A stretch of DNA of 64,000 nt. It comes from an uncultured Planctomycetales bacterium. Its GTDB lineage: Bacteria > Omnitrophota > Gorgyraeia > Gygaellales > Profunditerraquicolaceae. Below are positions 6,943 through 55,821 of this stretch, in pieces (the stretch's first letter is position 1; each line of letters begins with the position of its first letter). The translations under genes were made by a program, and so were the position numbers. Where the stretch lies: the NCBI GenBank assembly GCA_964542785.1, contig CAZIUK010000002.1, positions 155,416-219,415 on the forward strand, in the 5' to 3' direction. The notes beneath the pieces were generated by a model. That model made no database searches and had not been told where the DNA came from. It was given only the letters and a program-made list of their open reading frames with translations.

Positions 6943-6982
6943 TTCAAAATAAAAAAAATACCCTAGGCCTTTATGCCTAGGG
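6943..6982 (-). terminator. Rho-independent terminator / attenuator hairpin immediately upstream of pyrR
   Basis: A perfect 8-bp stem CCCTAGGC/GCCTAGGG with a 6-nt loop at 6961-6982 is followed on the minus strand by TATTTTTTTTATTTTG. It also ends the rsmI transcript. Confidence 0.6.
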
Positions 6983-7010
6983 TATCTAATATGCAGGTTA
7001 TAAACTCCAT

Positions 7011-7060
7011 TACTCTCTCCGCCTTGCCTGCCTCTCCGGGCAAGCCTTAAAGGTCTTTTT
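7011..7060 (-). promoter_or_regulatory. Putative PyrR-binding anti-antiterminator RNA element
   Basis: The minus-strand RNA reads GGCUUGCCCGGAGAGGCAGGCAAGGCGGAGAGAGU, which contains CCGGAGAGGC resembling the PyrR binding-loop consensus (CCAGAGAGGC) inside a stem. Confidence 0.4.
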
Positions 7061-9263: not shown

Positions 9264-11693
9264 CTATTCCTCTTCTGCTATAACCGGGGCAATGCAAGAA
9301 ACCCGATCTTTATCCTGTAGTTTAATTAATTTCACGCCCTGGGCAGAGCGTCCGGTCTCCCTAATATCTTTAACCGCACAACGCAAAAATATGCCATTTT
9401 GAGTAATGACCATCAACTCGTCTTCATCGCTAACGGTCTTCAAATTTACCGCTTCGCCGTTTTTATCCGTAACCTTAATATTAATTATCCCCTTACCTCC
9501 ACGAGAAGTCAACCTATATTCATCTACTGTGGTACGCTTTGCAAACCCCAAAGAGGTAACCGTTAGTATCGCCGCATCTTTTTGTGGGAGAACTAAATCT
9601 ATCACTTCATCTTTTTTTGCTAAAGATACTGCCCTTACCCCCCTGGCAGTACGCCCCATATCCCTAACTTTAGTTTCGGAAAAACGTATTGCCTTGCCTT
9701 GACGGGTGCCTATTAAAAGCTCTTGCTTTCCGTCCGTCATCTCTACGCTTATTAACTCATCTCCTTTATCTAGAGTAATACCTATAATCCCTCCTTTACG
9801 CGGGTTACCATAAGCATCAAGTTTAGTCTTTTTAATTAAACCTAATTTAGTAACCATTACTAAATATTGGTCAGCAGAAAACTCTTTAACAGGAACAGTA
9901 GAGCTTATCTTAGAGCCCTGCTCCATCTGCACTAAATTAATAATAGCCTTGCCCTTAGAAGTACGGCTTGCCTGCGGAATCTCATAAACCTTAAGCCAAT
10001 GAACTTGCCCCTTATCCGTAAAAATCAAGAGGTAGTCCTTGGTAGATGCGACAAAGAGGTGCTCTATAAAATCCTCATCTTTAACCTCTGCACCGGTTAC
10101 CCCTCGCCCCCCCCGTTTCTGCCTACGGTAAGAGCTTACAGGAAGCCTTTTTATATAGCCGCTATGGCTAATAGTAACTACAACATCTTCTTCTGCTATC
10201 AAATCCTCTATTTCCAGCTCCTCCACTTCGCCAACTATATCAGTCCTACGTGCATCCCCATATCTCTCTTTAAGGTCTTTCAACTCATTTTTAATAATAC
10301 CCTCTATTTTTCTCTCGGAGGCCAATATAGCCCTGCATAGCTCTATCTTCTTTAGTAGTTCGGCATATTCAGCCTCAATCTTATCCTGCTCAAGAGCGGT
10401 TAAACGCTGTAACTGCATCTCTAATATTGCCTGCGCTTGCGCCTCTGAAAGGTCAAACTCTTTCATTAAATTAACCCGCGCTACATCCACGCTTTTAGAT
10501 GTCTTAATCACCTTGATAATTCGGTCAATAAATTTAAGGGCTATCTTTAGCCCTTCTAAAATATGCGCCCTCTTCAAGGCCTTGTCCAGCTCAAATTGTG
10601 TCCTACGACGAATAATAACCTTGCGGTGCTCTATATAACAATCCAATACTTGACGCAGATTTAAAACCTTTGGTCTATTCTCTACAAGCGCAAGAGTAAT
10701 AATACCAAAGGTGGTCTCCAGCTGTGTATGTTTAAAAAGCTGGTTGAGGATAATCTGCGGCTCAGTATCCCTCTTAAGCTCAACTACTATACGCATGCCA
10801 TCCTTATCAGATTCATCACGTATATCAGAGATACCTTCTACCTTTTTCTCATCTACAAGCCCGGCGATAGCCTCAATTAATGATGATTTTTGCACCTGAT
10901 ACGGAATCTCTGTTATAATAATCAAATCTTTTCCGTTTTTTTGATGCTCAATAGTTGCCCGAGCGCGCACAGTAAGTTTACCCCGACCAGTTGTATAAGC
11001 CTCTTTAATCCCGCCTTTACCGCATATAACCCCTCCCGTAGGAAAATCCGGCCCTTTTATATAACGCATCAAGTCCTTAATCTCTGCTAAAGGATTGTCC
11101 AAAAGGTAAATAATCGCATCTGCTACTTCATTTAAATTATGCGGCGGGATATTTGTAGCCATGCCTACAGCAATACCGCTTGATCCATTTACGAGTAGAT
11201 TCGGCAGAGCTGCGGGCAAAAGTAAAGGCTCTTTTAATGAAGCATCAAAATTAGGCCCAAAATTTACTGTATCTTTATCTATATCCCCCAGAATAACATC
11301 GGCTATGGAGGCAAGACGCGCCTCAGTATAACGCATGGCTGCAGCCGCATCTCCATCCACAGAACCAAAGTTACCTTGTCCATCTACCAAGGGATAGCGT
11401 AAAGAAAAATCCTGCGCTAACCTCACCAAAGCATCGTAAACCGCTACATCCCCATGCGGATGATATTTTCCCAAAACCTCTCCAACGATACGCGCACATT
11501 TTTTATACGGCTTCGAATGCCCTAGGCTTAATTCCTGCATAGCATAGAGTATTCTTCTATGCACTGGCTTTAAACCATCACGTATATCAGGTAGAGCACG
11601 CCCAACAATTACGCTCATCGCATAATTTAAATAAGCGTCTTTAACTTCCTCTTCAATACAAACGGGAACTACTTTTCCATTACGAGCATACAT
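9264..11693 (-). CDS. gyrA: DNA gyrase subunit A
   Basis: The 809-aa ORF has the active-site Tyr region [11 protein letters not shown] and a C-terminal beta-pinwheel repeat region. Confidence 0.95.
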
Positions 11694-34453: not shown

Positions 34454-34456
34454 GGT

Positions 34457-34490
34457 TGACTTTGCTAAAATATGTGCTATACTTTTTTTA
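34457..34490 (+). promoter_or_regulatory. Putative sigma70-type promoter for the rarA/EF-G-paralog transcript
   Basis: TTGACT, 17-nt spacer, TATACT. It is followed by a roughly 135-nt leader containing the imperfect hairpin GTTGGAAAATTGATAATTTTTGAACCAAC. Confidence 0.35.
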
Positions 34491-34630
34491 GAAAAAGAGT
34501 TCTTTTAAAATCCCTGCTGTGCGCGTTGGAAAATTGATAATTTTTGAACCAACAAAAATATCAAGGGAGCCTGTATTCTACGGCGCTTTTGCACCATAGA
34601 GAAGGCACCCACCTAAAAAGATAGGTTCAA

Positions 34631-35983
34631 TTGAATCAGTCTAACGGCACAAAGCGGGGATTTTTTTATGCTATGGATTTATTCCCTAAAGAAAAAACAG
34701 AAGAGCTTACAAATCTTCCCTTGGCAGTCCGTATGCGACCGGTTTCTTTAGATGATTTTATTGGCCAAGAGGATATTGTAGGCAAGGGAAAGCTTTTGCG
34801 TCGGGCAATAGAGGCTGACCGGTTAAATTCTCTTATCCTATTTGGCCCTCCTGGGGTAGGCAAGACTTCTTTGGCGTGGTGTATAGCAAATATCACAAAA
34901 GCCCACTATTCTTCTATTAATGCTACAATTTCTAATGTAGAAGAGTTGCGTAAAATAATATCCTCTGCGAAACAAAAATATACTAATACCGGAAAAAAGA
35001 CGATACTTTTTATAGATGAAATTCACCGCTTTAATAAAGCACAGCAAGATGCTTTGCTTCCGGATGTCGAGGGCGGGAATCCCATCTTAATTGGGGCAAC
35101 AGTACATAACCCGTATTTTTCTATTATCCCTCCATTGATCTCCCGCTCCCTTGTTTGCGAGCTTAAAAGCCTTAAAAGCTCAGATATCGCTGCAATTTTA
35201 TCTCGCGCCTTGAAAGATAAATCTTTAGGGTTTGGTGCATTAAAGGTTAAAATAGATAAAGAAGCGCTTAAGTTTTTAACGCATACATGTGAAGGGGATG
35301 CGCGCAGGGCGCTTAATGCCCTTGAGATAGCGGTTCTTACTACCCCGGAAGGAAAAGATGCAAGTATAAATATTAATTTAGAAATTGTCGTAGAATCTAT
35401 CCAAAAAAAGCCGGTTGTCTATGATAAGAGCGAAGACGGGCATTACGATACTGCTTCTGCCTTTATCAAATCTATGCGCGGAAGCGATCCTGATGCCGCG
35501 CTCTACTGGATGGCGAAGATGCTTTATGCCGGAGAAGACCCTAGGTTTATTGCGCGTAGAATTTGTATCTTAGCAGCGGAGGATGTTGGCAATGCTGATC
35601 CGTTAGCTTTAGTTTTGGCGAATGCCGCTTTACAGGTATCAGAGTTTGTTGGGATGCCTGAGGCGCGTATACCTTTAGCGCAGGCGGTAATCTATCTTTC
35701 TTGTGCCCCTAAATCCAATGCCAGCTATTTAGCTATTGATAAAGCAATGCAGGATATCAAGAGTTATAAAGTTCAGGAGGTTCCAGATTATTTAAAGGAT
35801 GCTACCTTAGACAAAGAAGATCTTGGTCATGGAAGAGGGTATAAATATGCTCATGATTATAAGGGGCATTATGTAAAACAAAAATATACACGTAAAAGGG
35901 TGCGTTACTATGAACCTACAAATATGGGGTATGAGTTAAAGATAAAAGAACGGATGCAGAAGATAAAAAAGATAGATAAATGA
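34631..35983 (+). CDS. rarA: Replication-associated recombination protein A (AAA+ ATPase)
   Basis: The 450-aa ORF has Walker A GPPGVGKTSLA, Walker B ILFIDEIHRFNK, and the MgsA C-terminal domain. Confidence 0.9.
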   Translation: MNQSNGTKRGFFYAMDLFPKEKTEELTNLPLAVRMRPVSLDDFIGQEDIVGKGKLLRRAIEADRLNSLILFGPPGVGKTSLAWCIANITKAHYSSINATISNVEELRKIISSAKQKYTNTGKKTILFIDEIHRFNKAQQDALLPDVEGGNPILIGATVHNPYFSIIPPLISRSLVCELKSLKSSDIAAILSRALKDKSLGFGALKVKIDKEALKFLTHTCEGDARRALNALEIAVLTTPEGKDASININLEIVVESIQKKPVVYDKSEDGHYDTASAFIKSMRGSDPDAALYWMAKMLYAGEDPRFIARRICILAAEDVGNADPLALVLANAALQVSEFVGMPEARIPLAQAVIYLSCAPKSNASYLAIDKAMQDIKSYKVQEVPDYLKDATLDKEDLGHGRGYKYAHDYKGHYVKQKYTRKRVRYYEPTNMGYELKIKERMQKIKKIDK

Positions 35984-35986
35984 TGT

Positions 35987-38900
35987 ATGAATAACCTGAC
36001 TTTAATAGTATTAGTCCCTGCGGTAGGTATGGTTCTCTACGCCTTATATGCGGTTTTCTTTTCGTCTTCTTGCCCAAAAGAAAAGAAGCTGAAGAAAAAA
36101 ATAAGCGATCTTACCCTGCCTGACTTCCGCGACCAGAAGATATCCCGACTTGAGGAGGAGTTAAAAAAATTAGAAGCAGAACTTGAAAAACAACGTCTTA
36201 TATATAATACTGAAAAAGCAAGTTTTCAGGAGGCGACAAGTAAATATAATGAGCTAAAAGAAGAGTTAAGCCGCAGGCAGGCGTGGGTTACGGCTTCTGA
36301 AGGGATGCTTGATAAGGTAAAAGCAGAAAATTTAGAACTTAAGAACCGGTTTATAGAAAAGGAGAAGGAATCTCAGGAAGAGTTTACCAAAAATGTAAAC
36401 TTAAAAAAAGAGATAGGCAAGCTTAAAATAAAAATAGGCGAGTTAGAAAAGATTAGCAAGGACAAGGAAGAGCAGATTGAGATACAGAGGCATAGGATAG
36501 AAAAAAATGAGCGGGATACAAAAGTTTATTTAAAGACTATAGATGAGTTTAAGAATAAAGAGAAGATAAGCGAATGGATTCCTAAGGTAGAGTTTAACAA
36601 ACTTAATGAAGAGTACACTGAATTAGAAAAAGAATTAGAGGAGAAAGAGGAACGCCTTAAAGGTTTTGCCGAAGAAATAGTTAGTTTAAGGAAGCAGGTC
36701 CGGGAGGGTTCTTCTTTAGATGTGCTTACAAAAGGCGAGGATAAAGACGAACGTAAACTCCTTAAAAAAGAAGATATGATAGAGTCGTCTGTAGATAAAG
36801 AAGAGCTAAAGAAGACGGCAGCGAAAAGTAATGATGAAGCCTTTCCTATAGGGACTAAAGAGGGGGATCTTAAGGAAGAAAAAGAGGAGAAAGAAGTTGT
36901 AAGCCAATCAGCAGAGATTAAGGATAAGGAAAAATTTATTCCCCAACTAAAATACTCTTTAGATAAAACTCGCAATATAGGGATTATGGCGCATATTGAT
37001 GCCGGCAAGACCACAACTACGGAACGGATATTATTTTACACCGGGAAATCCCATAAGATAGGAGAGGTACACGAGGGGGCTGCGGCTATGGATTGGATGA
37101 AACAGGAGCAGGAGCGGGGGATAACGATTACCTCTGCTGCGACAACTTGTTTTTGGAAAGATTACCGTATTAATGTAATTGATACTCCTGGGCATGTAGA
37201 TTTTACAGTAGAAGTAGAGCGCTCTTTGCGTATCTTAGACGGAGCTGTGGCTGTTTTTTGCGCAGTAGGAGGCGTTGAGCCACAATCAGAGACAGTATGG
37301 CATCAATCAAATAAGTATAACGTCCCTAAGATTGGGTTTGTTAATAAGATGGATAGGGTTGGCGCGGATTTTTATGCGGTTTTAAAGGGGATAGAGGAGG
37401 ATTTAGGGGGAAATCCTATCCCCATAGAGATACCTTTATTAAAAGAGGAAGGAGATTTTCAGGGGGTAGTAGATTTGTTAGAGATGAAGGCTTATATTTA
37501 TGAAGATGAGTCTTTAGGCAAAGGATACCGTATTGAAGATATCCCTCAGGATTATTTAGAAAAGGCAAAAGAGTACCGGCACATTATGGTTGAGAAAGCA
37601 GCAGCATTTGACGAGGGGTTAATGAAGAAGTATTTAGAGCAGGGGGAATCTGCTATTAGCGTAGAGGAATTATCCTCGGTGATAAGAAAAGGGACAATAA
37701 GCAACAAGGTTGTTCCTCTTCTCTGCGGCTCGGCATTTAAAAATAAAGGATTGCAGAAGTTGTTAGATGCAGTAGTAGCGTATCTGCCCTCTCCTTTAGA
37801 TGTTCCGGCAGTTGAGGGGCATGATTTAAAAGATCCTGATAATATACTTTTGCGTAAACCCGGGATAAAAGAACCTTTTGCCGGGCTTGCTTTTAAGGTT
37901 CAGGCAGATCCGCATATGGGGAAATTAGTCTACACCCGCATTTATTCTGGTTGCCTTCAAACAGGTACCTATATTTTAAACTCAACTAAAAATAAAAAGG
38001 AGAGAATAGCGCGCATAGTCCAGATGCACGCAAACCAGAGGGAGAATACTGAGAATGCCTTTGCCGGGGATATAGTGGCAGTAGTTGGTTTAGGTAATAC
38101 AACTACTGGGGACACTCTTTGCGATCCGGACAATCCTCTTTTGTTAGAGGCGATACAATTTCCTACGCCGGTTGTCTCTTTAAGCATTGCCCCAAAGAGC
38201 AGGTCAGATCAGGATAAGTTAGGAAAGGGTCTGTCAAGGCTTGCTGAAGAAGACCCGACTTTTATTGTTAATACAGACGATGAGACTAAAGAGGTTATTT
38301 TAACCGGGATGGGAGAGTTACATCTTGAAGTTATCGTTGATAGATTAAAAGAAGAGTTTGGGGTAGAGGCAATAGTAGGTCAGCCAAAAGTAGCTTACCG
38401 AGAGACGATTACTATAGAATCAGAAGGTGAGGGTAAGTATATTAAACAATCCGGAGGTCGCGGGCAATATGGGCATTGTAATTTAAGGATTGTTCCGGCA
38501 AAGCCCGGAGAGGGGTTTGAGTTTATTGATTCTATAAAAGGAGGAGCTATCCCGCGTTCGTTTATTCCTGCGATAGAAAAAGGCGTAATTGAGGCGATGC
38601 GAAAAGGGGTGTATGTAGGATACCCGGTTGTAGATATTAAGGTAGAGTTATATGATGGTTCTTTTCACGAAGTAGATTCTTCAGAGCTTGCTTTTAAGAT
38701 GGCAGGGATCTTTGGATTTAAAGATGCCTTTTTGAAGGCTAAGCCTATTTTATTAGAGCCGTATATGTCTTTGGAAGTATCTACTATAGAAGAATATGCT
38801 AATGCCTGTATCGGGTACATTTGTTCCCGACGAGGAAAGATTTTAAATACCGAACCAAAAGGCAAGCAGAAGATAATCTCTGCAGAAGTTCCCTTAGCAG

Positions 38901-39037
38901 AGATGTTTGGTTATGCTACGGCTTTCCGCTCCCTCTCTTCCGGACGCGCAAATGCCTCTATGGAGTTTTCTAAATACTTACAAGTCCCGCAGGAGATTAC
39001 CCAAAAACTCATTAAAGAAAAACAAAAAAAAGAATAG
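35987..39037 (+). CDS. EF-G paralog with an N-terminal transmembrane anchor and about 300-aa coiled-coil extension (membrane-tethered translocase-like GTPase)
   Basis: A single 1016-codon ORF. Residues 5-26 are hydrophobic ([22 protein letters not shown]) and residues 35-320 are K/E-rich heptad coiled coil. From about residue 325 (about nt 36960) it is a complete EF-G: [35 protein letters not shown], domains II-V. It starts 4 nt after the rarA stop. Confidence 0.8.
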
Positions 39038-40704
39038 GGATACCCAACCTGCTAAAGCTGTCTGTAGAATAACATTACAGATAGCGTCATTAATGGCTTG
39101 TTGATACCGTTTGAATATCGAAGACCTCAATAATCCTTCTCTTAAGCGGGGGGCAATTTGCTCTATAGGGCTAAATACAGAATCAAGATTACACTGGTAA
39201 CCTTCCCCAACGATGGATTAAAGTATTAAGTGCTTGATTCCTGGGTGTATCCTTTTTGAGTATAGTATCTTGTTATTGATAATGTAAAATATCTTTCGCG
39301 CTTTTAATATTGTCTTTAGTATAAAAAAGGCATATCCTCTTAGGTTGATAACGTAAATTATTAACCTAATTGAGGCTTTAGGCCTCAGCAAAAGGAGGAT
39401 ACGCCTTATGAGCAGGCCGGTTGATTTTTCTACCAGTAATCTACCAAAGCAATGGCAATATGTAAAGCGTAATTTAAAAGAGATGGGGATATTGAATCAG
39501 ACAGAAGCAGATAATATAGAGGTTAAAGCACGGTTGATAGTGGAAGCGTTCTTCCAGCGCGGAATATTTACTGAGTTTAGAGAACAGCTAAAAGCGGATG
39601 TATATGAGCACGCAGAAGAACGAACCGATATCCGTTCAGGTACTTATCCGCGTATATTTACTACTACCTTTGGCAAGACTAAGCTATTAATTCCAAAGGT
39701 CAGGAAGAAAAGCAAAGAATACGTATATAAACTATTTGCCAAATACCAGAGAAGACAAAAGAAGTTTGACGATATGATAGTATTATCGCTGATATTGGGT
39801 TTTTCAACCCGCAAGCAGCAAAGGTTTTTCCAGGCCTTTATCGGTGATTCAGTAAGCCATCAGACAGCATCACTTCTATTGCAGAATCTTAGCGATGATC
39901 TAAGGCAGTATCAATCCATGCCTATAGAAGATAAGTATAGGTTTATCTTCATTGATGGACTCTGGGTGCATATTAAAGAAGTTGACATCAAAAAGAGGCC
40001 AATTCTTTTTGCCTTAGGGATAACCCAAGACGGCAATCAGGAGATTATCGCCTTTAAATTAGCTAAAGGCGAGACAGAAGAGGAATATACAAGTTTTTTA
40101 AATGACCTCTACCGCAGAGGTTTAAAAGGCAAATCTTTAGAGCTTATTATCCAGGACGGTTCAGAAGCAATTACTTCTGCGGTAAATATGGTTTATCCGT
40201 ATACTCCAAGACAACGTTGCTATACGCATAAGTTAAGGAACTTACTGCAGAATATCCGGCATAAAGTTAAACATAGGCCTAAAATGGCAAGAGAGGCAAG
40301 CAGAATCTACAAGGCCGCATCCCGGCATGAAGCAATTAGGCGATTTAGGGTGTTTGTCAACAAGTGGCGCTATAAAGAACCTAAAGCAGTTAAATGCTTC
40401 CAGGATGAATTTTACCATACGCTTAACTTTTATGATTTTCCAAAGGAAGTGCGTTCTGCCATATCCACCACTAATCATTTAGAGCGCTTCCTTGAAGAAA
40501 TTAGAAGGCGTATTAAGATACAAGGTTACTTTAAGAACAAACGCAGCCTTAACCTTTGGATATTCGGCCTTATAAAACATATAAACTTAAACCCAATTAA
40601 GCAGCCTAAAGGGTATGTCTTAAAGCAAAAGCGCGAAACATTGCTTGCTTAACTTTGTTATTATTTTTCTTGAGAATTATATATATTAATGTTAAAATTC
40701 ATTT
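39038..40704 (+). mobile_element. IS256-family insertion sequence (boundaries approximate; inverted repeats not resolved by eye)
   Basis: A 370-bp non-coding stretch plus the transposase gene lies between the EF-G paralog and the MetV-like gene. A hairpin TGAGGCTTTAGGCCTCA overlaps the transposase RBS. Confidence 0.4.
39408..40652 (+). CDS. IS256-family (Mutator-type) transposase
   Basis: The 414-aa ORF has a DDE region (FIDGLWVHIKE, IQDGSEAI) and the QRCYTHKLRNLL motif (family consensus QRCWVHKMRN). Confidence 0.85.
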   Translation: MSRPVDFSTSNLPKQWQYVKRNLKEMGILNQTEADNIEVKARLIVEAFFQRGIFTEFREQLKADVYEHAEERTDIRSGTYPRIFTTTFGKTKLLIPKVRKKSKEYVYKLFAKYQRRQKKFDDMIVLSLILGFSTRKQQRFFQAFIGDSVSHQTASLLLQNLSDDLRQYQSMPIEDKYRFIFIDGLWVHIKEVDIKKRPILFALGITQDGNQEIIAFKLAKGETEEEYTSFLNDLYRRGLKGKSLELIIQDGSEAITSAVNMVYPYTPRQRCYTHKLRNLLQNIRHKVKHRPKMAREASRIYKAASRHEAIRRFRVFVNKWRYKEPKAVKCFQDEFYHTLNFYDFPKEVRSAISTTNHLERFLEEIRRRIKIQGYFKNKRSLNLWIFGLIKHINLNPIKQPKGYVLKQKRETLLA

Positions 40705-41381: not shown

Positions 41382-41819
41382 ATGAATAAACAATTTCCTT
41401 ATAATGAAAAAGTCATGGATCATTTTGCTAATCCCAGGAACGTCGGGGAGATCCCTGATGCCAGCGGTATTGGAGTCGTAGGAAATCCTGTTTGTGGAGA
41501 TGTAATGAAGATGTTTTTAAAGATAGAGGGTAATACCATTGTGGATATTAAATTTAAGACCTTTGGTTGTGGCGCAGCCTTAGCTACAAGCTCTATGGTT
41601 ACAGAGATGGTTAAGGGAAAAACTATAGCTGATGCCTTAAAAATAACTAACAAGGAAGTTGTAGATGCCTTAGGGGGATTGCCATCAGTTAAAATGCATT
41701 GTTCAGTTTTAGCTGAGGAGGCATTGCGTTCAGCCTTAAAAGATTATTATCAAAGACAAGGCAAGCCTGTGCCTTTTGATGAAAAAGAGCATTTAGATGA
41801 GAGTAAAAAGCATTTGTAG
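41382..41819 (+). CDS. iscU: NifU/IscU-like Fe-S cluster assembly scaffold
   Basis: The 145-aa ORF has three conserved Cys motifs (NPVCGD, GCGAALA, HCSVLA). Confidence 0.8.
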   Translation: MNKQFPYNEKVMDHFANPRNVGEIPDASGIGVVGNPVCGDVMKMFLKIEGNTIVDIKFKTFGCGAALATSSMVTEMVKGKTIADALKITNKEVVDALGGLPSVKMHCSVLAEEALRSALKDYYQRQGKPVPFDEKEHLDESKKHL

Positions 41820-42378
41820 CGCAGAAGTCAGGTTGACAAAAAATAAAATACGTAGTAAAATCCTACTTAAGTTAAAAAAACAGAAGGAGGAAGACCGTAG
41901 CAAGAAGAGCTGTTTAATTAAAGAAAAACTTTTTAAAGAACCGATATTTAAGAAAGCAAAGAGAGTAATGTTTTATATCGCCTTTAATGGCGAGGTAGAG
42001 ACCAAAGAGATGATTAAGGGAGCTAAAAATTTAGGTAAGATTATCGCTGTGCCAGCCTGTATAAAAAATAGAAGATCTTTATTGCCGGTTTTGTTGCAGC
42101 CTCATAGCCGGCTAAAAAAGGGTCCTTACGGAATATCCGAGCCGGTTACAAGTCGCTATATTGATTTAAAAGATTTGGATTTAGTTATCGTCCCGGGTTT
42201 AGCATTTGATAAAAAAGGTAATCGATTAGGACGCGGCAAAGGTTATTATGACCGTTTCTTAAAGAAGATTACTAATAAAGAGACTCCTTCTATTGGTTTG
42301 GCATTTAGCATGCAAATCTTACCAAAAGTTCCCACTACTTCTTCCGATGTTCGTGTAACAAAAGTCCTCTTTGCTTAA
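41797..42378 (+). CDS. 5-formyltetrahydrofolate cyclo-ligase
   Basis: The 193-aa ORF has motifs of the MTHFS family (DKKGNRLGRGKGYYDRFL). It overlaps the iscU end, and an alternative TTG start at about 41833 is possible. Confidence 0.8.
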   Translation: MRVKSICSAEVRLTKNKIRSKILLKLKKQKEEDRSKKSCLIKEKLFKEPIFKKAKRVMFYIAFNGEVETKEMIKGAKNLGKIIAVPACIKNRRSLLPVLLQPHSRLKKGPYGISEPVTSRYIDLKDLDLVIVPGLAFDKKGNRLGRGKGYYDRFLKKITNKETPSIGLAFSMQILPKVPTTSSDVRVTKVLFA

Positions 42379-54261: not shown

Positions 54262-54268
54262 TTGTTTT

Positions 54269-54340
54269 TGCCCTGTCGTCTAATCGGTAGGACTTCAGAT
54301 TCTGGATCTGACTATCATGGTTCGAGTCCATGCGGGGCAG
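54269..54340 (+). tRNA. tRNA-Gln (anticodon CUG)
   Basis: TGCCCTGTCGTCTAATCGGTAGGACTTCAGATTCTGGATCTGACTATCATGGTTCGAGTCCATGCGGGGCAG. It has a U1-A72 pair, which is typical of bacterial tRNA-Gln. The anticodon loop is TTCTGGA. Confidence 0.8.
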
Positions 54341-54372
54341 TTAACTATTTGATAAAAAATAAGGAAGATTTT

Positions 54373-55821
54373 ATGGGATTAGAGACGATATTGCTTTGGG
54401 TTGCGGTTTTAATATTCGTAAGCGCTATTTCAAGCAAACTTTCGGATAGGTTTGCCATACCTGCTTTGCTACTTTTTTTAGTTATTGGGATGCTCGTTGG
54501 TTCTGAAGGGTTAGGGAAGATTTATTTTGACAATGCGCATCTAGCAAAATCCATTGGGATTGTTGCGCTTATCTTTATTATCTTTTCTGGTGGGCTTGAT
54601 ACTAATTGGAGAGAGACTAAACCCGTTCTTTGGCAGGGGGTAATCCTCTCTACCGCAGGAGTATTGTTGACCGCGCTTATAACAGGTATCTTTGCCGTTT
54701 ATATCTTTAGATTCTCTCTCTTAGAAGGGCTACTCTTAGGCTCTATAGTCTCCTCTACCGATGCTGCGGCAGTATTTAGTATCTTGCGCTCTAAACGTAT
54801 AAGCTTAAAACAGCCTTTAAAACCTTTGCTTGAATTTGAATCTGGAAGCAACGATCCGATGGCAGTATTTTTGACCGCAGGTTTTCTTAGTATTATAATT
54901 GCAAGGGATGCGAATATTTTTTCTTTGGTCCCTAGGTTTTTTATGGATATGGGGATGGGTGCAGCTATAGGATATCTAATGGCTAAGATTACCGTATTTT
55001 CTATCAGTCGGCTTAAGTTGTATTATGAAGGGCTTTATCCTGCAGTGATGATATCTTTAGTCCTTTTAACTTATGTAGTCGCCGTATCTTTAAAAGGCAA
55101 TGGGATATTAGCTGTCTATGTCGCTGGTTTAATGCTTGGCCGGGCAGAATTCCCGAATAAAAGAATGATTTTAAAATTCCATGATGGTTTAGCTTGGTTG
55201 ATGCAGATTACGATGTTTGTGACTTTGGGGCTGCTTGTTTTTCCTTCACAAATCTTGCCATTGATAAAACCGGGGCTTTTGTTGGCATCTCTTCTTATGG
55301 TAGTTGCCCGGCCCGTAAGCGTATTACTTTGCCTTTTGCCATTTAAGATGAAGATGCGTAAGAAGATTATGGTTGCTTGGGTAGGGCTCAGAGGGTCGGT
55401 CCCCATTATTTTAGCGACCTTTCCTTTTATGGCTGGGATTGCACAGGCAGGGGTTATTTTTAATATCGTTTTTTTTATTGTTATCGCTTCAGTTCTTATC
55501 CAAGGAACATCGATTCCTATTGTTTCTAAAATGTTAAAGGTAGCTGCTCCGTGGATTGATAAAGCACGTTATCCCATTGAATTTGAAAAAACAAAGAACA
55601 TTGACGCAGAGTTAACTGATATAATAGTTCCGTATAATTCAATTTCTGTAGGTAAGATGATTCGTGATTTAAAGGTTCCTGAGAAATGCCTTATTATGCT
55701 TATCTCAAGAAATGATAGATTTATTATTCCTGCCGGACCTACGGTTATAGAAGGCGGGGATGTTTTGTTGGTACTTGCTAATAAAGATGATCTTGCTGTT
55801 TTTCAAAGGACTTTAGCATAA
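54373..55821 (+). CDS. NhaP-type (CPA1) K+/Na+:H+ antiporter with a C-terminal TrkA-C domain
   Basis: The real start is the ATG at 54373 with an AAGGAAG RBS; the ORF-track start at 54262 would read through tRNA-Gln. The protein has 12-13 TM helices plus an RCK_C domain. Confidence 0.8.
   Translation: MGLETILLWVAVLIFVSAISSKLSDRFAIPALLLFLVIGMLVGSEGLGKIYFDNAHLAKSIGIVALIFIIFSGGLDTNWRETKPVLWQGVILSTAGVLLTALITGIFAVYIFRFSLLEGLLLGSIVSSTDAAAVFSILRSKRISLKQPLKPLLEFESGSNDPMAVFLTAGFLSIIIARDANIFSLVPRFFMDMGMGAAIGYLMAKITVFSISRLKLYYEGLYPAVMISLVLLTYVVAVSLKGNGILAVYVAGLMLGRAEFPNKRMILKFHDGLAWLMQITMFVTLGLLVFPSQILPLIKPGLLLASLLMVVARPVSVLLCLLPFKMKMRKKIMVAWVGLRGSVPIILATFPFMAGIAQAGVIFNIVFFIVIASVLIQGTSIPIVSKMLKVAAPWIDKARYPIEFEKTKNIDAELTDIIVPYNSISVGKMIRDLKVPEKCLIMLISRNDRFIIPAGPTVIEGGDVLLVLANKDDLAVFQRTLA

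Follow-up and report, generated by a model that had tools for sequence, protein, structure and literature searches.

The locus described here raises the question of whether a bacterium may keep translation elongation factor G (EF-G), which is regarded as a freely diffusing cytosolic factor, attached to its membrane. The window, by which we mean the whole stretch of 64,000 nucleotides (nt) that was analysed (contig CAZIUK010000002.1 of assembly GCA_964542785.1, from an uncultured Planctomycetales bacterium that GTDB places in the Omnitrophota), contains at 35987..39037 on the forward strand one ATG-initiated, stop-free open reading frame (ORF) of 1016 codons plus stop, the product of which combines a predicted transmembrane (TM) anchor, a coiled-coil stalk and a linker with EF-G. 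An earlier reading of the DNA without database searches (the sequence-only reading) had singled out this ORF as uninterrupted, and it is present as claimed in the ORF list of the window, in which the opposite-strand ORFs nearby are short shadow ORFs. The long ORF is a genuine, conserved gene fusion and not an artefact; the fusion together with its predicted architecture is very likely real, and the protein, here called the long EF-G, may hold part of the translation machinery near the membrane.

The long ORF is a conserved gene fusion

A homologue search of 5.8 billion proteins listed 120 clusters, and among these more than 110 have the fusion, almost all of them 990-1047 amino acids (aa) in length with 99-100% query coverage and 61-90% identity; the few that carry a name are called "elongation factor G [Candidatus Omnitrophica bacterium]". 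When the alignment of the N-terminal module was scanned against one GTDB genome per species, 116 species matched and 80 loci were kept, each fetched as 20 kb of its genome, and the fusion was found in 56 of these loci, as 53 complete ORFs (997-1062 aa) and three that are cut by contig ends. The fused frame recurs in independent assemblies from JGI, ENA, NCBI and Logan, and a 100% identical fragment (P0004) comes from a separate JGI metagenome. Thus the doubt that the fusion might be absent from relatives and coincide with a contig join is settled by the same frame in more than 110 listed clusters and 56 of 80 species. Divergence of the N-terminal module is correlated with that of EF-G (r = 0.82; median identity 47% versus 76%), which argues that the two halves have been inherited together.

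A fusA gene with a mis-called start could give rise to such an ORF, and the sequence-only reading had set that explanation aside on the basis of the start codons available near the EF-G boundary. Its account of these codons is correct, as only GTG 36722 and ATG 36776 are available in frame ahead of the boundary and the ATG that follows them (36986) is already within the G1 region, and its conclusion holds for relatives as well: an ATG, GTG or TTG stands at the expected canonical EF-G start in only 8 of 58 fused loci, with a Shine-Dalgarno-like motif in only 3 of those 8, and the homologue alignment has no conserved methionine near the boundary. The window does have an in-frame ATT at 36938 that is preceded by AAGGA, and this arrangement is not conserved. 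A mis-called start, or internal initiation as the source of the main product, was therefore rejected, there being no conserved start site across the window and the 58 fused loci. Some database gene calls (P0015 and P0032 at NCBI, P0033 at JGI) begin at an internal methionine (MLNKVKAEN...), which hides the TM helix.

The C-terminal part of the protein, aa 322-1016 (36950..39034, +), is by all sequence-based measures a complete EF-G of the canonical type, as indicated by Pfam, TIGR00484 and end-to-end alignments. The five-domain architecture, G' insert included, extends over aa 327-1007 (PF00009, PF22042/PF03144, PF14492, PF03764 and PF00679), with the G domain at 36965-37792, domain II at 37874-38125, domain III at 38159-38380, domain IV at 38384-38743 and domain V at 38750-39007, all on the forward strand. 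The EF-G equivalog model TIGR00484 scores 1025.6 bits against a cutoff of 659.4, with positions 5-690 of its 691 aligned to aa 323-1013, and the models for other translation GTPases (EF-G2, tetracycline ribosomal protection, RF3, LepA and BipA) all stay far under their cutoffs; for the EF-G2 and EF-G-like models NF009377, NF058620 and NF009892 the scores are 504 versus 890, 487 versus 1000 and 194 versus 640, respectively, and for the tetracycline protection model NF012153, 370.8 versus 775. End-to-end alignment gives 879 bits with the EF-G of T. thermophilus, 844 with that of E. coli and 835 with that of S. aureus, and weaker scores with mitochondrial EF-G1 (562), RRF2mt (468) and T. thermophilus EF-G2 (396). 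The earlier proposal of a repurposed EF-G2-like factor does not survive these comparisons (1025.6 versus 659.4 for the equivalog, 504 versus 890 for the EF-G2 model, and 879 versus 396 bits for the two Thermus proteins).

The GTPase motifs G1-G5, including the catalytic histidine of DTPGH, and the GGRGQYGH loop are all present. Over 62 homologues the P-loop AHIDAGKTT and NKMD are invariant, as are D399, T400, P401, G402, H403, D405 and F406 of DTPGHVDF (V404 in at least 90%) and, in the domain IV loop GGRGQYGH, G823, G824, G826, Q827, Y828, G829 and H830 (R825 in at least 90%). The median identity of the EF-G part to its relatives, 76%, equals that of L20, L35 and RarA of the same loci. The sequence-only reading had described a complete, apparently catalytic EF-G from about residue 325, and the five Pfam domains, the equivalog score and the motif conservation agree with it: this part of the protein is most likely catalytically competent. 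Where the long EF-G departs from a canonical one is in its form and context, since it is not a ~700-aa soluble protein starting 8-10 residues before the G1 strand and its gene does not occupy the str-operon position; the place of the canonical N-terminus is taken by 321 extra residues that include a TM helix, and no internal start is conserved. A tblastn search with E. coli S12, S7 and EF-Tu found no match in the window or in 83 related loci, in keeping with the earlier remark that this gene lies outside the str operon.

The N-terminal module, with and without EF-G

The extension begins with a TM helix at aa 2-25 (35990..36061, +), predicted from hydropathy and AlphaFold. Its best 19-residue Kyte-Doolittle window begins at aa 6, has a mean of 2.43, and is the strongest hydrophobic segment of the whole protein, so that the hydrophobic helix claimed for residues 5-26 is recovered with a slight shift of its borders. 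In 111 of 121 homologues the TM helix at the N-terminus is strong (median hydropathy 2.48) and the EF-G core starts at aa 300-364; the remainder are fragments or gene calls that begin at a methionine inside or after the helix. The net charge ahead of the helix is 0 or -1 in the homologues, with no basic n-region, and the 20 residues after it are net positive (+1 to +6) in 91 of the 111. Because of this charge distribution the helix is predicted to be a signal anchor that leaves the N-terminus outside and places most of the protein, EF-G included, in the cytoplasm. A cleavable signal peptide was considered and ruled out by the lack of a basic n-region, the ~22-residue hydrophobic stretch and the positive charge that follows it; a lipoprotein was ruled out as well, the cysteine at aa 29 not being conserved.

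The helix is followed by a basic juxtamembrane segment at aa 26-46 (36062..36124, +; KEKKLKKK) that is predicted to be disordered (AlphaFold predicted local distance difference test, pLDDT, <50), and then by two predicted coiled-coil helices that are delimited by alignment, AlphaFold and periodicity. Helix 1 takes up aa 47-196 (36125..36574, +) and would be ~22 nm long; helix 2, with a [19 protein letters not shown] block, takes up aa 200-239 (36584..36703, +); the break between them, seen in the alignment and in AlphaFold, is a W-(V/I)-P motif at aa 197-199 (36575..36583, +) that reads WIP in the window. An AlphaFold2 model of the module, built on a 38-sequence alignment, has an uninterrupted helix over aa 47-196, with pLDDT of 91-98 over most of it, and a second helix over aa 200-240 after the W-V-P break. 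The model of the full-length protein is consistent with this; in it the linker is disordered (pLDDT 26-31 over aa 240-315) and EF-G has a confident fold from aa 325. The alignment-averaged hydrophobicity of aa 47-240 has a period of 3.50 residues at 23 times the median power, which was reached by none of 500 shuffles, and on this basis aa 47 to ~240 are a true heptad coiled coil of a predicted length of ~28 nm. The TM helix and coiled coil postulated for the N-terminus are thus both predicted by these methods. The heptads had been claimed for residues 35-320, and the claim stands for aa 47-239; aa 240-321 (36704..36949, +) are instead a disordered acidic linker by AlphaFold and alignment, rich in lysine, glutamate and aspartate, with 28% column conservation and without heptads. 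In relatives this linker measures 46-111 aa (median 78) and consists of 27% E, 14% P, 12% K and 11% A, for a net charge of about -0.17 per residue.

The sequence-only reading treated this region as a coiled-coil spacer, a view that does not fit the pattern of its conservation or the fact that it is also encoded alone. The module has the conserved blocks RRxEWV, KVKxENLxLKNKF, [15 protein letters not shown] and EQIEIQKHxIEK, all of which belong to helix 1, and [28 protein letters not shown], with variable stretches between them; W100, H169, W197, K200, F203, L206 and N207 are invariant in the alignment and P199 is found in at least 90%. It diverges about as fast as PheT and XseA of the same loci (48.5%, as compared to 50% and 48%). 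By these measures the module is a protein family with constraints of its own and not a low-complexity spacer. The motif EW(V/I)(A/P)K.E occurs in it twice, at aa 100-106 (36284-36304) and aa 197-203 (36575-36595), 97 residues or ~14 heptads apart, and in each copy the invariant tryptophan lies just ahead of a core position; the pairing suggests an internal duplication that gives the stalk two equivalent binding or packing sites. Pfam has nothing in aa 1-325 of the long ORF, the module alone has no match above cutoff in Pfam and NCBIfam (sub-threshold coiled-coil noise only), and Foldseek finds nothing with E <5 for it in the PDB. No curated model describes the family, the nearest thing to one being a weak precomputed match of PF28533 (DUF8429) to a distant member only. 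The window protein has all that marks the family: a TM helix, a basic patch, a heptad coiled coil of ~190 residues and EW(V/I)(A/P)K motifs ~97 residues apart.

A standalone form of the module, 248-412 aa long with the TM helix, the coiled coil and an acidic tail, is encoded in 24 of the 80 GTDB loci (L027, L034, L037, L039, L040, L043, L044, L047, L048, L050, L052-L056, L058-L060, L064-L067, L069 and L075). In these loci the module gene lies near position 10000 and, where flanks exist, in the same neighbourhood, from which the EF-G part is cleanly absent; in most of them the next genes are those for a peptidyl-prolyl isomerase (PPIase) and uvrD, and EF-G does not occur within 10 kb. Every fused or standalone form examined retains W100 and W197. 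In L064, a run of N at ~10700-10900 within the acidic tail marks an assembly gap in repetitive KEET-coding sequence. A profile search of 1.84 billion representatives found more standalone members and also a distant family of ~230 aa in other Omnitrophota (P0217, P0224, P0233, P0245, P0256 and others), with a TM helix, a coiled coil and the invariant tryptophans W101 and W198, the counterparts of W100 and W197. In the four loci examined for this distant family (L084-L087, gene at 10001-10699) an aminotransferase gene comes next and not the rarA-linked genes. The N-terminal module is thus, as judged from its sequences, an uncharacterised Omnitrophota family in its own right.

The 80 kept loci are almost all titled Omnitrophota; a few records (L008, L012, L020 and L079) are titled "uncultured Planctomycetales" or "Margulisiibacteriota", and L079, which was checked, has the same synteny. 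Three genomes are classified as Koll11 (now Gorgyraeia)/GIF10, that is, Gygaellales/Profunditerraquicolaceae/Amyimicrobium. All carriers of the fusion are Omnitrophota, and wherever a classification exists the order is Gygaellales. Neighbour-joining trees were made from the coiled coil of the module, rooted on the distant ~230-aa family, and from PheT+PheS+RarA. In the rooted module tree the deepest branches are all fused and the standalone forms occupy three nested positions (a clade of 21, the pair L053/L054, and L065); in the PheT+PheS+RarA tree the main standalone clade also falls among fused lineages, and the GTDB genus UBA6249 has both states. Since the standalone forms are nested within the fused ones, the EF-G part appears to have been lost at least three times.

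Two further observations concern the outskirts of the family. A search with a very divergent fused N-module (P0198) returned two matches, one of them from TARA Oceans. Proteins P0226 and P0247 (~720 aa) have a similar TM helix and repeated coiled coil and match the module profile with E of ~1e-14 to 1e-16, which may be coiled-coil similarity only; the C-terminal region of P0226, read by eye, may resemble MshEN/T2SSE_N plus PilZ.

Possible readings of the long EF-G

We favour, with about an even chance of being right, the reading in which the long EF-G is a membrane-anchored, stalked second EF-G that serves membrane-proximal ribosomes. In outline, a single polypeptide would be held in the cytoplasmic membrane by its signal-anchor helix with the remainder in the cytoplasm; a parallel coiled coil of ~190 residues (~28 nm), probably a dimer, would project from the membrane; and an acidic, proline- and glutamate-rich disordered leash of ~50-110 residues, with a contour length of ~28 nm, would carry EF-G. 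The stalk module would have existed earlier as an Omnitrophota membrane protein with a function of its own, and a copy of EF-G would have been fused to the 3' end of its gene, downstream of 6S RNA and rarA, in an ancestor of the Gygaellales-type lineage. The tethered EF-G would act as an ordinary ribosome-dependent GTPase with a reach of ~30-55 nm from the inner membrane, and would raise translocase or recycling activity locally where membrane-bound ribosomes insert membrane proteins. A ribosome docked at a translocon has its factor-binding site 10-20 nm above the membrane, so the geometry of the tether fits service of such ribosomes. Topology, oligomeric state and action on membrane-proximal ribosomes are what we infer here.

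That the fused EF-G is probably a second copy follows from the pattern of loss. EF-G is an essential protein, and its repeated clean loss from this locus implies another EF-G in the genomes concerned and, by parsimony, in their fused-type relatives also; the fused EF-G is then most likely a second, dispensable copy beside a normal str-operon fusA, which is inferred to exist. In class Gorgyraeia, chromosomes with canonical S12-S7-EF-G-EF-Tu-S10-L3 operons have been reported in a 2026 preprint on 176 complete Omnitrophota genomes, of which Gygaellales, with 64 genomes, is the largest order; the supplement comes without a list of the chromosomes that bear the str operon (10.64898/2026.06.07.730766).

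Several points weigh against the favoured reading. No second fusA was found for any fused-type genome, the 83 loci of 20 kb each being without str-operon genes. A DNA-pattern scan of metagenomes, aimed at EF-G starts that bear the signature MDWMKQE behind an S7 stop codon, gave 26 str operons, the EF-Gs of which are only 50-60% identical to the long EF-G, and among the 10 of these operons that were looked up none is named Omnitrophota (three are without an organism name, and the others belong to or cluster with named members of Oscillospiraceae, Acidobacteriota, Selenomonadaceae, Myxococcota and Bacillota). The inference of loss is drawn from neighbour-joining trees of coiled-coil or three-marker data, and L037 and L060 are placed differently by the two: the module tree puts them with the main standalone clade, the PheT+PheS+RarA tree with the fused L015 and L046, a conflict for which mis-binning, recombination or an artefact of tree building could be responsible. 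Insertion into the membrane, dimer formation and activity are all predictions, and the AlphaFold model is of a monomer, with a predicted template-modelling score (pTM) of 0.39. Gygaellales encode giant membrane-anchored proteins of up to 147,155 aa (10.64898/2026.06.07.730766), which makes local enrichment of a translocase an attractive idea; the link from the long EF-G to these or to membrane-bound ribosomes is the circumstantial one of taxonomic co-occurrence. Finally, a primary EF-G type of score and slow evolution like that of ribosomal proteins would equally fit a sole housekeeping EF-G.

The last of these points leads to the view, which we consider unlikely, that the long form is the sole EF-G of fused-type genomes and that all of their elongation is carried out by a membrane-tethered translocase, with the standalone-module lineages having regained a free EF-G through gene fission and relocation. 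The canonical type, the very high equivalog score, the housekeeping-like conservation and the fact that no other EF-G is seen in the fetched loci all speak for it, as does the reach of stalk plus linker, which at ~55 nm would span a large part of a 200-300 nm cell, the width that Omnitrophota cells are said to have. Against it, at least three independent clean deletions of EF-G with synteny unchanged would be far easier in the presence of a redundant fusA, absence of a second copy within 20-kb loci says little, and canonical S12-S7-EF-G-EF-Tu operons occur in the class (10.64898/2026.06.07.730766). The KEGG Orthology rows read from the Seymour 2023 supplements give K02355 a value of 1, are not tied to genomes, and so do not bear on the matter. 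A bolder form of the favoured reading, to which we would assign a similarly small chance, has dimeric stalks holding the translocase at translocon-docked ribosomes as a separate membrane-proximal elongation system for the hours-long insertion of giant proteins (10,000-147,000 aa); in its extreme version the long form would again be the sole EF-G and all translation would be tethered.

No better placed is the possibility that the fusion exists only at the level of the gene or the precursor, with a soluble EF-G released by internal initiation or by proteolysis of the linker and the stalk acting separately. Proteases could plausibly attack the long, disordered and poorly conserved linker, there is a conserved P-x-P-(K/R) motif just ahead of the EF-G core, the window offers its in-frame ATT after AAGGA, and the module functions alone in 24 species. 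The survey of start sites described above tells against initiation at the boundary (a canonical start in 8 of 58 loci, Shine-Dalgarno-like motifs in 3 of those, and no conserved methionine), and the in-frame fusion has been kept in dozens of species without the variable linker ever gaining a stop, which argues that the covalent link itself is selected.

Slightly less probable again is a tether that sequesters, in which EF-G would be an inactive membrane reserve or a regulator that is engaged conditionally, or would anchor ribosomes to the membrane. A membrane-stored reserve has been proposed for LepA/EF4, and the architecture of the long EF-G is compatible with one; its gene is downstream of that for 6S RNA, a growth-phase regulator, and the fused copy is dispensable in some lineages. 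All of the catalytic and tRNA-mimicry motifs are nonetheless strongly conserved, which suggests ordinary turnover, a 28-nm stalk with a flexible linker looks made for reach rather than for occlusion, and the Pfam and NCBIfam scans detected no regulatory domain. As for an assembly join, frameshift or annotation error that merged a coiled-coil gene with fusA, an IS256-family transposase just downstream and the internal starts annotated by NCBI for P0015 and P0032 might raise the thought, and the continuous frame in independent assemblies of more than 110 clusters and 56 GTDB species, with the identical fragment P0004, leaves it next to no credence.

If a canonical EF-G is indeed anchored over dozens of species, then it would be an example from nature of elongation or recycling confined in space, and a handle on membrane-side translation in ultra-small, host-dependent bacteria that encode very large membrane proteins. 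The analysis also defines a previously unnamed membrane coiled-coil family, the related fused and unfused lineages of which offer a natural comparison. The database label is just "elongation factor G", and some entries are cut at an internal methionine, so that the fusion is invisible to annotation-based surveys.

Surroundings of the gene and comparison with known systems

The long ORF belongs to a highly conserved gene order, infC-rpmI-rplT-trkH-pheS-pheT-[6S RNA]-rarA-[module(-EF-G)]-PPIase-uvrD-DUF5981-nifU-5-formyltetrahydrofolate (5-FTHF) cyclo-ligase-rny-ymdB-GH39-xseA. Its immediate upstream neighbour is rarA/mgsA (34673..35983, +), which encodes an AAA+ ATPase (Pfam MgsA_C, AAA_assoc_2, RuvB_N and AAA) and the stop codon of which ends 3 nt 5' of the long ORF; the sequence-only reading thus placed the ORF correctly after rarA and overstated the gap, given as 4 nt, by one (35984-35986). 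The linkage is borne out in relatives, with rarA at most 100 nt from the module gene in 59 of 84 loci. The mechanical ORF call starts rarA at TTG 34631. As this codon falls inside the 6S RNA gene (34508..34664), ATG 34673 is the more likely start, and it is also where the rarA alignments of relatives begin. In five of the related loci rarA and the module are separated by one or two small genes (at 9080-9987 in L001/L071, and at ~9100-10000 in L049, L061, L063 and L080); a glycine-zipper (Rick_17kDa_Anti-like) gene is found in all five insertions, and L001/L071 adds a gene for a 136-aa coiled-coil protein.

The 6S (SsrS) RNA gene itself (34508..34664, +; RF00013, 77.4 bits against a gathering score of 46.4) follows pheT directly in all seven relatives tested (L004 8522-8678, L009 5748-5907, L021 8511-8670, L040 8505-8664, L046 8445-8602, L055 8352-8513 and L071 7436-7595), with an insertion between it and rarA in L009. 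A promoter-like site just after the pheT stop codon (34456..34483, +; TTGACT, 16 nt, TG-TATACT, with 10 of 12 matches and an extended -10) may be a candidate promoter for a 6S RNA-rarA-long EF-G unit; the scan for promoters and terminators returned counts in the region equal to the shuffled expectation, which makes the site weak evidence. The classical neighbour of 6S RNA is the 5-formyl-THF cyclo-ligase gene (ygfA), and in the window this gene (41797-42378) is found on the same strand, 7 kb farther downstream, as if inserted genes had split an ssrS-ygfA pair. Between the long EF-G gene and DUF5981 there is a transposase gene of the IS256/Mutator family (39408-40652, +; Transposase_mut E = 1e-70), around which a search turned up no convincing terminal inverted repeats; in most relatives this site is occupied by PPIase and uvrD, and in the closest, L004, by nothing. 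Farther off in the window there are a PyrR binding-site RNA at 6951-7057 on the reverse strand (RF00515, 56.4 bits against a gathering score of 54) and a tRNA-Gln at 54268-54341 (+), which overlaps the TTG start of a 519-aa transporter-like ORF (54262-55821) and indicates that the start of that ORF is mis-called.

A full-text literature search found no description of a membrane-anchored coiled-coil EF-G fusion, in agreement with the earlier claim that such a protein is undescribed, and it is best viewed beside the systems that resemble it in part. With canonical EF-G (FusA of E. coli or of T. thermophilus, 1DAR), aa 322-1016 share the five domains with the G' insert, the motifs and the domain IV loops, and the same biochemistry would be expected of them, namely ribosome-dependent GTP hydrolysis, translocation and recycling; the long form differs in its 321 extra N-terminal residues, in its 6S RNA-rarA context in place of rpsL-rpsG-fusA-tuf, and in its loss from some lineages. 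Duplicated EF-Gs (P. aeruginosa EF-G1A/1B, T. thermophilus EF-G2, spdEFG1/2 of spirochaetes and planctomycetes, and mtEF-G1/RRF2mt) provide the precedent for two copies, some of which split translocation from recycling. The long EF-G resembles the P. aeruginosa pair (6n0i and 4fn5), both members of which are of the canonical type, and is much more distant from EF-G2 (396 bits) and RRF2mt (468 bits) than from EF-G1; we know of no duplicate that is membrane-anchored or that has a coiled-coil extension.

The tethers ZipA, TonB and RNase Y are built on the same plan: an N-terminal signal-anchor helix and a charged segment come first, then a long spacer rich in Pro/Glu or Pro/Gln, and a globular working domain makes up the C-terminus. 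The likeness is architectural only, as Pfam, NCBIfam and Foldseek find no homology of sequence or fold; none of the three has a translation GTPase as its cargo, and the spacer of TonB is periplasmic. The RNase Y gene (rny) happens to lie 3.4 kb downstream in the window, and relatives have the RNase_Y_N region, which we take to be a membrane anchor plus coiled coil. FtsY (the receptor of the signal recognition particle, SRP) and membrane-stored LepA/EF4 are, like the long EF-G, GTPases with a membrane-linked activity, the difference being that they associate peripherally or through an A domain and are not translocases, whereas the long EF-G would be covalently anchored by a TM helix. A parallel to the fusion itself is an engineered one, the L9-EF-G chimera (PDB 4wpo and others), in which a protein placed on the N-terminus of EF-G is tolerated. 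Such chimeras have reportedly been solved bound to ribosomes, and they are artificial constructs for crystallography, in contrast to the natural membrane tether that the long EF-G would represent.

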